A DNA stretch of 64,000 bases from Candidatus Woesearchaeota archaeon (GTDB lineage: Archaea > Nanobdellota > Nanobdellia > Woesearchaeales > UBA583), in NCBI GenBank assembly GCA_023898345.1, contig CP060218.1, positions 767,777 to 831,776 on the forward strand. The letters are read 5' to 3'. Every line of letters starts with the position of its first letter. Within the stretch, counting starts at the first letter, position 1. Of this stretch, positions 57,442 through 62,533 are shown in pieces. Under the pieces are notes generated by a model. The model was given only the letters and a program-made list of their open reading frames with translations, was not told where the DNA came from and made no database searches. A program made the translations under genes and the position numbers.

Positions 57442-57816
57442 TTACTGGACGAAAACTCCGGACAGGTCTCCGCTTTGACCTGGACGGGAAGTTATTCTAA
57501 CATCTCCTTGAGCAGTCTTAACAATACATCCTTTTGTGATAATGTTACGTCTTGTGTAGTTTACATTTGCAGGATTTTGTGCTACTCCTTGAATTTCAAG
57601 ACTAAGGGTTGCCCCGCCTTTATTCACAAGTACTTTCTCTTTACTCAGGAGAGAACGTTTGATGTTACCTCCTCTTACTCTTTTTACTCTCACACGACTT
57701 TTACCGATGTGAGTCAAAGCAGGGTCTGCGCCCAGATCTGAAAGCCTTTTCTTACGGAAGGTAAGGTACTTCCTACCAGATGTTTTTTTTACGGATCTAA
57801 ATTGTGATTTTGCCAT
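57442..57816 (-). CDS. rps8e: Ribosomal protein S8e
   Basis: Characteristic S8e sequence including RRNIITKG and TSRPGQ. Confidence 0.9.
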   Translation of the reverse strand: MAKSQFRSVKKTSGRKYLTFRKKRLSDLGADPALTHIGKSRVRVKRVRGGNIKRSLLSKEKVLVNKGGATLSLEIQGVAQNPANVNYTRRNIITKGCIVKTAQGDVRITSRPGQSGDLSGVFVQ

Positions 57817-57822
57817 TTTTTA

Positions 57823-58401
57823 CTACCTCATTCTTCCTCCATTTGCACGAATACTTGGTCTTGCTTTCTCAGCACCAAATCCTTTGTTCTGAAGTCCTCT
57901 AGATTTTCGACCTGCTGAAGTCAATCCTCGCATAACTCTCTTTGTGTGCTTGTTGCTGCAGTACCTATGCAATTCTTTGTCCGTCATAATTTGAGGATGG
58001 TACACATCAAGAAGAAGAACTTCGTACCAGTAAGAGTATTCATCTTGTCCAACCCAGTAGGAACCAAGAACTTCCATATTTGGATATCGTTTTTGGGCCC
58101 GCTCTTCACAAATCCATTGGTAGTTCTTTGACTGCGCAATTCTTGTTGAAAGATTTCCTCCTGAACGACCTTTCATAATACGAGGGTTGTTTTTTCCACC
58201 TCTTTTAACTCTCACTCGTGTAACAATAACCCCTTGCTTTGCTTTGTACCCTAAAGCATGCGCTCTGTCCGGCCTTGTTGGGTATTCAACACGCTCAATG
58301 GAAAGCCCACGTCTCCATTCGATAAGTCTTTGCCTGTACTCTTCCCCAAGTGTTTCTCTTGGTTTTTTCCAAGCTTCTTTGACATATTTAAGATATCCCA
58401 T
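57823..58401 (-). CDS. rpl15e: Ribosomal protein L15e
   Basis: Characteristic L15e sequence GYKAKQGVIVTRVRVKRGG. Confidence 0.9.
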   Translation of the reverse strand: MGYLKYVKEAWKKPRETLGEEYRQRLIEWRRGLSIERVEYPTRPDRAHALGYKAKQGVIVTRVRVKRGGKNNPRIMKGRSGGNLSTRIAQSKNYQWICEERAQKRYPNMEVLGSYWVGQDEYSYWYEVLLLDVYHPQIMTDKELHRYCSNKHTKRVMRGLTSAGRKSRGLQNKGFGAEKARPSIRANGGRMR

Positions 58402-58942
58402 TTTTTATTTTAACTTCATCCTTTCGGACAAACAATAAGAAGTACAAGATCTAAACTCGCATCAACACGGGTATCATCGCCAGTTTTGAATTGTATTCTT
58501 TGGAAAAGAAACAAATGGAAGTTTATAAATTTCACGCCTTACGACCAAAACAAAGCCCAGAAGAAAAAACTACAAAAATAGGGCACCTAGGTCTCTTTCA
58601 GAAATTTCGGCACTTTGACATGTCATTATTAAAATGTTTAAAGTATCGTTCGAAAGAAATCCGTGCTGTCTTTAGGCTGAGGATGAATTGAATGATAATT
58701 TGTACAACAATCTTGGTATACTCATTTGAAACTCCGTAGAATCCCCTTCTTTTAAGCTGAGAAGTTTGAAGTTTTCTAGCACTTCAATCAATTTTAAAAG
58801 TACAGAGGATTTACAAAAGACTTATCCTTCATAAATATTTTCTAGATTAACCCTGAGACTTGCCAAGGTAAGACCAAAACTGTAACTTTTGAAACTCTTA
58901 GGCAGTCCGTGGACATACCACAATCGAGCAATGTAACTGTTA

Positions 58943-59065
58943 CTTACGAGCAGCGAAAGCCATTGTTCGTGTTCGAGTTAGAAGGACCATTGTTCAAGTT
59001 CAGAGCAAAGGCACCCGCGTTTGCACCATTGTTCCAATTGCCCCCGGACAGGAAAACACCCTTTG
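58943..59065 (-). repeat. DGR template repeat (TR)
   Basis: 123-bp match to 59971-60093; 17 of 19 differences are at TR adenines on the minus strand; TR reads KGVFLSGGNWNNGANAGAFALNLNNGPSNSNTNNGFRCS-stop. Confidence 0.8.
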
Positions 59066-59106
59066 GCTTTTGTATTTGTTTTGATCAGGAATTCCACTTC
59101 CTTTTC

Positions 59107-59856: not shown

Positions 59857-59903
59857 GAACATGCTTCGCATGTTCTCATCCCTGGGGCGGCATTTAGCCG
59901 CCC
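59857..59903 (-). promoter_or_regulatory. Two perfect hairpins just 3' of the VR (GAACATGC-TTC-GCATGTTC and GGGCGGC-ATTTA-GCCGCCC)
   Basis: Stems read directly from sequence at 59857-59875 and 59885-59903; a GC-only stem stands out in this AT-rich DNA. Confidence 0.4.
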
Positions 59904-59962
59904 GCCAGAACTCCAGAGTACTAGAGTGCCTGAACTCTAAGTTACCATCATTCGTACAATGC

Positions 59963-61303
59963 TCATCGTGCAAAGGAGCAGCGAAAGCCATAGTCCGTGC
60001 TCGAGTGAGAAGGACCATTGTCCAAGCGCAGAGCAAAGGCCCCCGCGCGCGCACCAGAGTCCCAAGCGCCCCCGGACAGGAAAACACCCTTTGACGCACA
60101 ATATCCAGTACAAAAATCGGGATACTCATTCACATTATTATACGCACCCAAAATGTCGTAACCATCGTAATATCTCCCCATTCCTTGATTCGCATTCCAT
60201 CCATTTGAAGGAAGCTTCAAAGTGGGAACAAGACTTGCAACCTTGCCTGTGCCGTCATTGCTATGGTAACTCATCCATTGCTGGTCTCCTCCATGATATC
60301 TGTATGGTGAACCAAGACTCTCATTTGCATAGACCCAAGCGTCAACCCATTCCCAGACATTGCCTGCAAAGTCCCAGAGTACTTCTCCGTTTGACAAGTT
60401 CAAAGTTCTTCTTTGTCCTGCACATGCCCTTCCACTTGTTGTGTCATCACCAGCTACAAAGTTGTTATACGAACCATCACAAGAACTCAGACTATCTCCT
60501 GTCCCAGAGTAGCCATTTCCGTCGTCAGTGTCAGCAGCAAGTCTGCTTGAGGGACTGTTGTCGTTGTGCCCAGAGTACAAGAAACCAGTGCCAACGACAG
60601 AGGAGTTCCAGTTGCTTGCGACAAACTCAACATTGTGTGCAATCGTCAGCCTCTCTTCTTCCGTCATCAAATGAAAGCCAGAACCCAAACTCTCACACTC
60701 TACCTTTGCTGCGTTCCACGTAATCGAAGCCCAAGGTAAACTAGCAGCTTGCGATGTCGCAACACCCCCAACATTCTTTGCTTCGTACTTCATCACACAA
60801 AAATTGTGTGTGCCGAGTTCAGCATTTCCGGGAACGACAACATAGCCGTCCGGACATGGGTTCTCGTACACGTAAGAATTCACATACTCCGTCTTTGAAT
60901 AAATCCTGCCATCCGTCACAACGACAATCTCATTCTTCCCTTCGTTGGCGCAGTCACTCATAGGCAAGACATTCAAAGAATTGTTTGTCAAACCAGAAAC
61001 AAAGCAATCATTTCCGTTAATAGAAACGCTTTGGATTTTAGCATTTCCCTTCACAAAAAGAGTTCCGCCAGACAGACCTTCAACAGAGAAAGAGCCAGAA
61101 GAACTTTGTGTGTCGACATGTGAAAGTGTAGAACTAGAAAAAGATTGGTACCAGGTTTGAAATCCGAGTGCCGCCAGAATAGCAACGACAATCAGCAAGA
61201 CACTAGCGACAACAGGAGAAATAGCTTTTTTCGAAGAGAGACACGAAGAAGACATCCTAAAATTAGACGAGACAAGTTTTGGGGAAAGCTTAGTTCTGTT
61301 CAT
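59963..61303 (-). CDS. DGR target protein: N-terminal TM anchor, C-terminal C-type-lectin/FGE-like variable domain
   Basis: ATG at 61303; TM segment VVASVLLIVVAILAALG; C-terminus ...NVWEWVDAW...GGAWDSGARAGAFALRLDNGPSHSSTDYGFRCSFAR; VR is the last 41 codons. Confidence 0.8.
   Translation of the reverse strand: MNRTKLSPKLVSSNFRMSSSCLSSKKAISPVVASVLLIVVAILAALGFQTWYQSFSSSTLSHVDTQSSSGSFSVEGLSGGTLFVKGNAKIQSVSINGNDCFVSGLTNNSLNVLPMSDCANEGKNEIVVVTDGRIYSKTEYVNSYVYENPCPDGYVVVPGNAELGTHNFCVMKYEAKNVGGVATSQAASLPWASITWNAAKVECESLGSGFHLMTEEERLTIAHNVEFVASNWNSSVVGTGFLYSGHNDNSPSSRLAADTDDGNGYSGTGDSLSSCDGSYNNFVAGDDTTSGRACAGQRRTLNLSNGEVLWDFAGNVWEWVDAWVYANESLGSPYRYHGGDQQWMSYHSNDGTGKVASLVPTLKLPSNGWNANQGMGRYYDGYDILGAYNNVNEYPDFCTGYCASKGVFLSGGAWDSGARAGAFALRLDNGPSHSSTDYGFRCSFAR
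59971..60093 (-). repeat. DGR variable repeat (VR) at the 3' end of the target gene
   Basis: Aligned to TR by hand; all 11 AAY codons of TR are substituted in VR. Confidence 0.8.
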
Positions 61304-61307
61304 TTTT

Positions 61308-61483
61308 CTGAACCCTGTCTCTGAACCCTGTCTCTGAACCCTGTCTCTGAACCCTGTCTCTGAACCCTGTCTCTGAACCCTGTCTCTGAACCCTGTCTCT
61401 GAACCCTGTCTCTGAACCCTGTCTCTGAACCCTGTCTCTGAACCCTGTCTCTGAACCCTGTCTCTGAACCCTGTCTCTGAACC
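61308..61483. repeat. Tandem repeat, 13-bp unit ctgaaccctgtct x 13.5
   Basis: Counted directly; 13 full units 61308-61476 plus 7 bp; no stop codon in any minus-strand frame. Confidence 0.9.
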
Positions 61484-62533
61484 ACATAAAAGAAAAAGCG
61501 GTTTTTTGAACTTATAAACATTATTTACTTTGTTCAGTAGTGTCACATTAGCGAGTTGCAAAATCAACCTCGGATTTGCCAAATCGCAATGACCTTTGAA
61601 ACTTATTAATGAAGCAATTTTCTTCTCCACATAATACTTTTTTACTCTTTTTTTGAATCTTCTAAGTGTCTCATTTCTTACTTTTAATCTCTGTTTAAAC
61701 ACATTAAAACCTAAAAAGGGAATGCCACACTCAATCTTATTTAAAACTAATTTTTTGGGAGAAACTGACAATGTAAGCTTTTTTTGAAGAAACTCTAGGA
61801 TTTCATCCCTTATTTCTTTTAACTCTTCTTTTCCCTTAGCCAAAAATACAAAATCATCAACATATCTAGTATAAAAAATATTCTTTCCTTGCTTTCTTAT
61901 TTTTGGTTTTACAATATGTTCGACATAAAAATCCAAATCGTGAAGATAAATATTAGCAAAAAGTTGAGAAGTTACATTACCTATGGGCATTCCCGTTTGC
62001 TTATTTGTTAAAGGATTATTGATCTTTTCTTCCCTATAACTATCAATAATCATCTTAACATAAAACAAAAAATCCTTATCCACAACATATCTCTTAATCT
62101 GTTCAAAAAGAAGTTCTTGTTCTATGGAAGGAAAATATTTGGTAATGTCCATTTTTAGAAAGTAGACATATTTCCTTGCTTCTTTTTGCAAGCTTAAAAC
62201 TGCTTGATGAGAACCCTTCCCTTTACGATTTGCAAATGAGTTAAAAATAAACTTTTTCTCATAAATCTCCTCAAGAAAACTAAAAACAGCATGATGTAAA
62301 AGATGATCCTCAAAACTTGGCGCATTGATAACTCTTTTTTTTGAATCTTCAACGATGAAAGTTCTATATTTTTTATGAGAATACCTAAATGTTCTTAGTT
62401 TAGATCTTAGAGTTAAAAGATTTTCTTCTAAGTGTTGTTTATATTCGATTACTTCCTTTGTCTTATTTCTCCCCTTATAGGCCAACAAAAATGAAGTGTG
62501 AAGATGCTCCAAGGAAGTAAATTTGTCAAACAC
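61484..62533 (-). CDS. DGR-type reverse transcriptase (GTG start at 62533; no stop before the tandem repeat)
   Basis: RT motifs MDITKYFPSI, MPIGNVTSQLFANIYL (IGxxxSQ) and YTRYVDDFVFL (YVDD); reading frame continues through the repeat into the target gene. Confidence 0.85.

Follow-up and report, generated by a model that had tools for sequence, protein, structure and literature searches.

The stretch analysed here, a 64-kb window (64,000 nucleotides) of a Woesearchaeota chromosome, carries a diversity-generating retroelement (DGR) beside the ribosomal protein genes L15e and S8e. All coordinates are positions in this window, and all DGR parts as well as L15e and S8e lie on the minus strand. Read along this strand, the cassette consists of a reverse transcriptase (RT) gene, a tandem array, the target gene with the variable repeat (VR) at its end, a gene for a 121-aa protein, the accessory gene avd, the template repeat (TR) and a structured RNA domain, and the conserved cassette block extends from about 62575 to 58810. 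Comparison of near-identical assemblies showed that their VR differences fall almost entirely at TR adenines, and very probably this region is a complete and currently active DGR in a chromosome of the DPANN archaea. The features of the locus are as follows:

62556..62564, minus strand: TATA-like box TTTTTAAAG, about 27 nt upstream of the GTG start of RT; putative RT promoter
61490..62533, minus strand: RT, the first approximately 348 aa of an 856-aa open reading frame (ORF) with GTG start; RVT_1 domain
61511..61518, minus strand: TATA-like TTTATAAG within the 3' end of RT, putative internal promoter of the target gene
61307..61483, minus strand: perfect tandem array of 13.6 copies of the unit GGTTCAGAGACAG, ending 4 nt before the target ATG
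59963..61303, minus strand: target gene (variable protein), 446 aa, ATG at 61303; pilin-like N-terminus and C-terminal domain resembling FGE-sulfatase and C-type lectin (CLec) domains
61169..61234, minus strand: class III (type IV pilin/archaellin) signal peptide and hydrophobic helix KKAISPVVASVLLIVVAILAAL of the target; TIGR02537
59976..60093, minus strand: VR, the final 38 target codons, followed by FAR-stop; near-repeat of the TR
59882..59908, minus strand: GC-rich hairpin/cruciform GGGCGGC-TAAAT-GCCGCCC with CTG/CAG flanks, from a DNA fold
59471..59836, minus strand: gene for a second accessory protein (121 aa), a diverged member of the 23S-rRNA-IVP/Avd superfamily with a predicted four-helix bundle
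59107..59481, minus strand: Avd accessory protein, 124 aa; PF22296
59078..59086, minus strand: motif GATCAAAAC 5' of the TR, kept in all TR-bearing loci; putative 5' strand of the helix around the TR
58948..59065, minus strand: TR, 118 nt; repeat of the target 3' end
58810..58947, minus strand: conserved structured RNA domain 3' of the TR, with covariation in a 7-locus alignment
58564..58578, minus strand: T5 and T6 runs, candidate archaeal termination signals found by sequence inspection
58419..58529, minus strand: L15e upstream region, with the TTTATAAA box at 58529-58522 and the leader TGGCGATGAT...TCCGAAAGGA at 58482-58419
57425..58401, minus strand: neighbours outside the DGR, namely L15e (58401-57823), S8e (57816-57442) and a T17 run (57441-57425)

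All the elements that a preliminary description of this stretch had listed were found on the minus strand at the places given there. RT lies ahead of the target as described, the distance from the RT end to the TR start is approximately 2.4 kb, and the spacer of about 540 bp between the TR and the ribosomal genes has a length of 546 nt, counted between the TR end at 58948 and the L15e start at 58401. What did not stand was the treatment of RT, repeat and target as separate features, as RT, array and target form one single uninterrupted ORF of 856 aa (62533-59963). The description had also allowed that a second RT or TR in canonical order might have been overlooked; BLAST and tblastn searches of the whole window with the parts found no second RT, Avd, TR or VR, so this was ruled out because each part is single-copy in the 64 kb. 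About 18 relatives of the RT had more than 48% identity and the next ones 41% or less, and these relatives, the clade referred to below, come from metagenomes and from Woesearchaeota/Nanoarchaeota-type metagenome-assembled genomes (MAGs). Related loci or assemblies that were compared with the window carry L numbers (L001 etc.).

Template repeat, variable repeat and activity

TR and VR match far better than chance would allow; their alignment (118 aligned nt) gave 16 mismatches, 15 at TR adenines and 1 at a non-adenine position. The TR holds 27 adenines, with 11 AAY codons and one ACG codon, and the number of possible tip variants computed from these TR codons was approximately 3.5e13 (15^11 x 4). 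The mismatch pattern of the TR/VR pair in L002 was likewise of the adenine type.

Three other assemblies overlap the VR with 99.6-99.9% identity to the window. L034 differed from the window at 17 positions in 4.7 kb, with 16 of them within the VR, and L046 differed at 14 positions in 9 kb, every one in the VR, while 3 of the 8 differences in L047 were in the VR. Thus the four assemblies, all at least 99.6% identical, carried four VR alleles, and 19 of the 21 polymorphic VR sites among them corresponded to TR adenines. The TR was identical in the window, L034 and L051, and in L046 it was located by an exact anchor. A decayed DGR was also considered as a candidate, and the VR allele differences speak against it.

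Behind the VR there is a hairpin whose 7-bp GC stem (10 bp including flanks) closes a loop of 5 nt, and the DNA fold of the surrounding region (59850-59975) had a z of -4.15, with none of 200 shuffles equal to it. TR and VR both carry GGCTTTCGCTGCTC and then diverge immediately, and no clear GC-only initiation of mutagenic homing (IMH) sequence like that of phage BPP-1 could be delimited.

Several contigs begin precisely where the VR ends or the TR starts, as would be expected if population heterogeneity breaks assemblies. Independent assemblies (L001, L035, L039, L040 and L048-L051) repeatedly showed such breaks, located at the VR or the TR or immediately ahead of the array. The DGR loci of this clade are thus systematically fragmented in MAGs, and therefore they are likely to be under-counted in surveys.

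Two further kinds of incomplete locus were observed. L037 and L038 (Ga0534205_000874 and Ga0534206_012759) have a target with VR, an accessory gene, Avd and the TTGATCAA motif, and neither a TR nor the 3' RNA domain was detected in 6.6 kb downstream; this cassette may be decayed or supplied in trans. In L047 (GCA_020430405.1, positions 1-3100) the RT is absent: homology to the window starts at 61580, with the last approximately 90 nt of RT, and upstream of it the contig carries CobA/BtuR-like and Lon_C genes, which do not occur in the 64-kb window. The array, the target, the two accessory genes and the TR of L047 are intact, and its VR differs from that of the window at the 3 sites mentioned above. 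L047 may be a genuine variant with the RT deleted, or else the contig is chimeric.

Proteins and template RNA of the cassette

Pfam analysis gave an RVT_1 match at aa 64-278 of the 856-aa ORF (E=2.3e-23). The closest solved relative was the Bordetella DGR RT 8ub7, matched over its full length with E=2.3e-36, and group II intron RTs followed at approximately 1e-20. RTs of the DGR clade are diagnosed by motif 4 [I/L/V]GxxxSQ and by YxDD, and both IGNVTSQ and YVDD were invariant across the RT alignment of the clade studied here.

The 124-aa Avd protein matched PF22296 (bAvd) with 53.9 bits (cutoff 40; 3e-14), and it also matched NF033474 DivGenRetAVD with 56.4 bits (2.9e-15), which is below the equivalog cutoff of 80. 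The 121-aa ORF had no Pfam match of its own, and a PDB sequence search with the profile of its family returned nothing relevant. Its AlphaFold2 model had four helices and a predicted local distance difference test score (pLDDT) of 91, and Foldseek placed the IVP-family structures 2gsc and 2rld first (probability 0.97-1.0, TM 0.55-0.67), with bAvd 4dwl and 8ube_D ranking after them. In profile searches, distant members of the 121-aa family matched PF05635, one of them above the cutoff. Direct comparison of the family with the clade Avd by hhalign was weak (E=0.054), so the homology was shown through structure and distant members. The family comprises 37 DPANN proteins, and in every clade case the gene is directly upstream of avd. 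On the evidence of the structural model, the 121-aa ORF is predicted to be a second, divergent accessory protein with an Avd/IVP-like four-helix bundle.

The VR sits at the extreme end of the target ORF. At the other end of the protein, TIGR02537 matched the N-terminus with 20.2 bits against a cutoff of 20, Pilin_N was matched by 5/7 target family members, and the family profile matched archaeal pilin filaments (8fk7 with E=1.8e-7, 8fj5, 8rey, 8gi2, 9myg and Iho670). For the C-terminal domain, FGE-sulfatase was matched by 7/7 family members (best E=2.1e-6), with the window target alone reaching 19.2 bits, below the cutoff of 23.3, and the family profile matched the Thermus DGR variable protein TaqVP (5vf4) with E=9.3e-5 and Mtd weakly with E~0.4. 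These matches indicate that the target is a pilin-like surface protein that is hypermutated at its tip and probably has a C-terminal FGE/CLec-like domain. Active hypermutation of such a protein, in a Woesearchaeota genome that is closed or nearly so, fits the idea that DPANN episymbionts diversify their attachment structures.

The region between the TR and L15e is not simply a spacer, as its first approximately 140 nt (58947-58810) are conserved across the clade. This 3' RNA domain holds the invariant GTTACAGTTTTGGTC (58886-58872), GGTTAATCTA and a terminal hairpin, and the 15-mer GTTACAGTTTTGGTC occurs in one copy per DGR and was found only in this clade. RNAalifold analysis of the 7-locus alignment gave 35 pairs, 19 of them with compensatory changes; 91.4% of the cells pair, compared with 35-48% for slid partners, and 0/500 shuffles reached the observed value. 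In addition, GAUCAAAAC just 5' of the TR pairs with GUUUUGGUC and so encloses the TR, in independent minimum free energy (MFE) folds of the window and of L002, and an A>G change of L002 in this helix retains a G-U pair. Searches of Rfam found no family in the region, either with gathering thresholds over the whole window or with permissive settings over 58380-60000, where the only match was a sub-threshold snoRNA on the wrong strand.

In Bordetella, the spacer RNA ('Sp' region) lies 3' of the TR and serves in RT-Avd docking. By analogy, the 3' RNA domain of the present cassette is most likely a domain for RT-Avd docking and priming that is detached from the RT gene. The template RNA would then consist of the avd-proximal GAUCAAAAC motif, the TR and the structured 3' domain of approximately 140 nt, and the latter would take over the docking role of the Bordetella spacer RNA. 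After reverse transcription, adenine-mutagenised cDNA would replace the VR, which lies 1 kb upstream of the TR. This locus is a natural case of an RT gene standing apart from the TR and its structured 3' RNA, and two different Avd-family proteins are encoded side by side. Both properties bear on the assembly of the RT-Avd-RNA particle, which has so far been studied structurally only in a Bordetella phage. At 58544-58552, between the T runs and the TATA box of L15e, GTTTTGGTC, which would form the 3' strand of the TR-enclosing helix, recurs without any mismatch; chance alone would give approximately 0.5 copies in 64 kb, so this may be a coincidence.

Gene order and genomic setting

The complete order of RT, target with C-terminal VR, 121-124-aa ORF, Avd and TR was also found in L002, L042 and L044, and a partial but consistent order in L012, L035 (and L001, from the same MAG), L037, L039 and L040. 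Every clade locus long enough to be read has the RT first. Relatives with approximately 35% RT identity, such as L013, have the canonical order target-avd-TR-RT, the order kept in more distant bacterial relatives; the canonical avd-TR-RT core, with RT directly after the TR, is absent here. Because all clade loci share their order and the relatives at approximately 35% are canonical, the RT-first order looks like a derived feature inherited within a small archaeal clade, not like a local rearrangement. The non-canonical layout noted in the preliminary description is therefore real, but it is not peculiar to this locus, as it is found clade-wide in unrelated genomic contexts.

Comparison with catalogued architectures agreed that the order is non-canonical, and it also showed that variable cassettes are already documented. 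Published surveys count 48 DGR cassette patterns (Wu 2018, PMC5758913), 122 (Yan 2019, PMC6642488) and 35-38 (BMC Genomics 2024, PMC11661182). According to these surveys, RT, TR and VR differ in order, orientation and spacing in a way that follows RT phylogeny, as the order does here, and TR and RT need not adjoin, share a strand or be co-transcribed (PMC5758913, PMC6642488, PMC11661182). The parts classified there are RT, TR, VR and sometimes avd, and the extra parts of the present clade are not described.

DGRs of DPANN/Nanoarchaeota and of the candidate phyla radiation (CPR) (PMC4372165, PMC5006420 for AvpA, PMC5758913) resemble the present one in being chromosomal, in their variable proteins, which are of CLec type and probably so here, in their hosts (ultra-small archaea), and in having small Avd-like ORFs and hairpins after the VR. 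In Wu et al. (PMC5758913), TR-(avd)-RT (pattern B3) is the arrangement that 90% of their CPR DGRs follow, with canonical target-avd-TR-RT as pattern B1, whereas the window clade has the RT first and avd-TR last. Some CPR DGRs have ribosomal-protein genes nearby or inside (PMC5758913), and PMC6642488 cites 'putative pilin structures' among CPR/DPANN targets. Twin accessory genes, a junction array or a 3' RNA domain are not mentioned in the texts on DPANN/CPR DGRs that were read.

The DGR of Bordetella BPP-1 (mtd-avd-TR-brt; PDB 8ub7-8ube) shares with this one the RT family, the Avd bundle, adenine mutagenesis, a VR that ends a CLec-type domain (a probable one here), a hairpin after the VR and structured RNA 3' of the TR. 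It differs in order (RT-target-accessory gene-avd-TR here), in the distance of 2.4 kb between RT and TR, in the 3' RNA, which is not followed by RT here, in the number of four-helix-bundle accessory genes (two here), in the host, which here is an archaeal chromosome and not a phage, and in the target, which is pilin-like here and a tail fibre there. In Bacteroides type V pili (bioRxiv 10.1101/2024.11.15.621889), a DGR also diversifies a distal domain on a pilin scaffold, but the scaffold here has the class III signal and helix of archaeal type IV pilins. In viral collections, searches with the RT, the RNA motif and the array found no relatives, so a viral origin is unsupported. Taken together, the locus is an active DPANN DGR with the RT first, twin Avd-family genes, a covariation-supported RNA unlinked from RT and a junction array, and its order lies within the known plasticity of DGRs.

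The surroundings of the cassette differ from genome to genome. The genes next to the window cassette are identified as L15e and S8e by Pfam (1.2e-64 and 6.7e-29), and the DGR adjoins them in at least five assemblies, an arrangement that is species-specific; an identical L15e protein is present on 16 public contigs, the longest of 1.54 Mb. Elsewhere the downstream neighbours are MinD/ParA (L002 and L044, which are mutually syntenic), a Tn3 transposase (L035), a Fic protein (L039) or a Big_13 protein (L040), and the upstream neighbours vary as well. Sequence conservation begins approximately 40 nt upstream of the RT start at the TTTTTAAAG box, in a zone that is conserved with L001 and L041 and beyond which the sequence is unrelated, and it ends past the terminal hairpin near 58810. 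The idea that the DGR had been inserted upstream of the ribosomal genes was upheld for the adjacency, which independent assemblies confirm, and not for the insertion itself, as no insertion scar was found at the window cassette, nor were terminal repeats or an integrase found around it. Integration associated with a tRNA was rejected, as there is no tRNA within 4 kb. Transposase genes adjoin two clade cassettes, a Tn3-family gene in L035 (1351-4389) and DDE_Tnp_1 in L043 (99-1346), which fits the placement of cassettes in differing genomic contexts.

The suggested synteny comparison with a relative lacking the DGR was possible with L055, whose L15e is 75% identical. In L055 the L15e-S8e pair is likewise adjacent, preceded by TruD on the opposite strand and then 220 nt. 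The motifs TTTATAAA, TGGCGATGAT and TCCGAAAGGA precede L15e both in L055 (6835-6945) and in the window (58529-58419), in each case as the TTTATAAA box, approximately 45 nt, TGGCGATGAT, approximately 50 nt and TCCGAAAGGA. This point is weaker than it might be, because the shared box and motifs were seen by eye and MAFFT did not align the regions. The stretch TGGCGATGAT...TCCGAAAGGA is possibly a conserved leader, or a small RNA, that belongs to the L15e-S8e unit; it fitted no C/D-box consensus and matched nothing in Rfam.

The junction array and alternative explanations

No other strong tandem repeat is present in the 64 kb: the array at the RT/target junction has a Tandem Repeats Finder score of 354, and the others reach at most 73. 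Its unit GGTTCAGAGACAG occurs nowhere else in the window, where 0.13 chance matches are expected, and the array is open in all three frames and forms the C-terminal tail of RT. At the same junction, this unit is repeated 9.6 times in L012, 4.0 times in L041, approximately 1.6 times in a homologue and 4.6 times in two other assemblies of the window's species (L046/L047), and in the window, L012 and L041 the unit is identical despite flanks that are only 56-76% identical. Perfect arrays of other units were found at the junction of L042, L043, L044 and L045, namely GATTCAAGCAAGG x2.9, GGTACACAGAGAG x2.1, GATTCACCCACAA x7.2 and GAAGCAG x8.4, and L002 has no array there. Arrays are thus present in most clade members, and neither of the unit lengths (13 or 7 nt) is divisible by three. 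A GGG tract spans the unit boundary once per unit in three of the four 13-nt unit types, and L044 has CCC instead; the arrays can be written as (G3N10)n or (C3N10)n, and this G-tract periodicity might be relevant to structure.

In each of the seven array-bearing loci, a TATA-like motif precedes the array by approximately 30 nt, and it is kept in L044 although the RT ORF has already stopped there. The target ATG follows approximately 3-15 nt after the array. Because of this motif upstream and the start codon soon after, the array probably forms the 5' untranslated region (UTR) of the target as well as the RT tail. RT and target share a frame in the window's species alone; elsewhere RT stops 11-49 nt past the target ATG. 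The remaining two frames of the window end either at a TGA that overlaps the ATG or at a TAA 13 nt in, and the in-frame fusion is thus one of the three phases of a slippage-prone tract. According to the mechanism that we propose, RT would be translated from a leaderless mRNA that begins near 62533, the target would be transcribed from its own promoter inside the RT 3' end, and the 13-nt array would be a clade-wide, fast-evolving slippage tract that by chance places RT in frame with the target here.

Another reading of the array gives it a function, as a contingency (phase-variation) switch that sets the end of the RT frame and the length of the target 5' UTR and so tunes RT and target expression. 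Perfect arrays at the identical junction in 7 clade loci, unit lengths (13, 13, 13, 13, 7) none of which is divisible by 3, a unit shared by three loci with diverged flanks, the occurrence of all three possible phases among the loci, copy numbers of 13.6 and 4.6 in assemblies of one species and the absence of a comparable repeat elsewhere in the window all point towards such a switch. On the other hand, L002 has no array, yet its TR/VR pair shows adenine-type mismatches, and the frame of the array need not matter for the target because the conserved target ATG follows it. Moreover, the arrays of 60 nt and 125 nt are near common assembler k-mer sizes and may be collapsed, and among the papers listed for DGRs, tandem repeats and phase variation, none linked DGRs to such repeats. 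We therefore consider a switch rather unlikely. The opa genes of Neisseria, with CTCTT repeats in the coding region of the leader peptide, are a simple-sequence contingency locus, and they resemble the present case in that a perfect repeat of strain-variable copy number, whose unit length three does not divide, borders the 5' end of a gene for a surface protein. However, the 13-nt unit here is long for a slippage tract, the host is an archaeon, and the array lies upstream of a conserved target ATG inside the RT 3' tail. If the array were a phase switch, it would be a rare archaeal example of contingency-locus behaviour. Somewhat less likely again is the broader proposal that the clade layers a slippage-based phase switch on retro-mutagenesis, together with a heteromeric Avd-like pair and an RNA docking domain unlinked from the RT gene. 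Under this proposal the array, which keeps its position across the clade while its unit is homogenised in each lineage, would set the phase, and an in-frame fusion of RT to leader and helix would be topologically compatible with prepilin processing.

The size of the array also leads to the question of whether the layout, or the RT-target fusion, is an assembly artefact, that is, a chimeric join or a mis-sized repeat. A perfect repeat of 177 nt cannot be sized by short reads, L047 joins the last approximately 90 nt of RT to unrelated genes, and many assemblies break in the DGR region. However, the window, L046 (on an 839-kb contig) and L034 share the order at 99.6-99.9% identity, the RT-first order is found in at least 8 divergent loci from different projects, and the identical L15e lies on a 1.54-Mb contig. 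A chimera, which the preliminary description had named as a possible refutation, was thus excluded for the VR-to-S8e and RT-to-target parts by the agreement of near-identical assemblies, and the join of the DGR to L15e/S8e is not chimeric because independent near-identical assemblies carry it. An artefact is hardly credible, and the uncertainty is confined to the exact copy number and hence to the in-frame fusion. The remaining alternative concerns the ribosomal genes, since the DGR could have been inserted upstream of an L15e-S8e operon and be co-transcribed or co-regulated with it by read-through, as the preliminary description had considered. All genes are co-oriented, with no opposite-strand gene between the DGR and L15e/S8e; no strong intrinsic terminator hairpin with T run is present within 58402-58810, and directly after the terminal RNA hairpin the window has T4 runs only. 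A scan for sigma-70 promoters and intrinsic terminators is uninformative for an archaeon, and its counts were near shuffle expectation. Archaeal transcription terminates at oligo-T runs, and a T5 run lies just past the terminal hairpin in most relatives. In the window, the T5/T6 runs at 58578-58564 are followed by the TTTATAAA box and the leader motif, L15e of the DGR-less L055 is the first gene of a divergent unit with the same box, and no other member of the DGR clade shares the adjacency to L15e/S8e. Read-through is therefore quite improbable. Because of the T5/T6 runs and the box shared with the DGR-less relative, we infer that L15e/S8e keep a promoter of their own and that the adjacency of the DGR is incidental, and being next to ribosomal-protein genes appears not to matter.

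Several points weigh against the reading of the region as a complete, active DGR with the parts and mechanism described above. The CLec fold of the target rests on weak-to-moderate matches, and its single-sequence AlphaFold2 model had a pLDDT of 30. The RNA covariation is drawn from 7 sequences only, the long-range helix enclosing the TR could not be tested for covariation because it is invariant, and the whole-window RNA MFE (z=+0.46) was no better than that of shuffles. No IMH/IMH* pair can be delimited clearly, it is unusual for a DGR to have RT and target in one reading frame, short-read assemblies may give collapsed copy numbers for the array, and one assembly (L047) misses the RT entirely. 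Promoters, terminators, RNA ends and the independent transcription of L15e are all deduced from sequence.

Two minor observations were made in the part of the window next to the DGR. Four consecutive plus-strand ORFs (1745, 764, 280 and 1263 aa) at 44370-56849 adjoin the DGR; none of them has a Pfam domain or a VR-like match to the TR, and they are probably lineage-specific surface proteins. Within this region, a segment of 167 nt (52135-52301) is missing from L046, L047 and L048, whose flanks match the window with at least 99% identity, which represents an indel within the same species.

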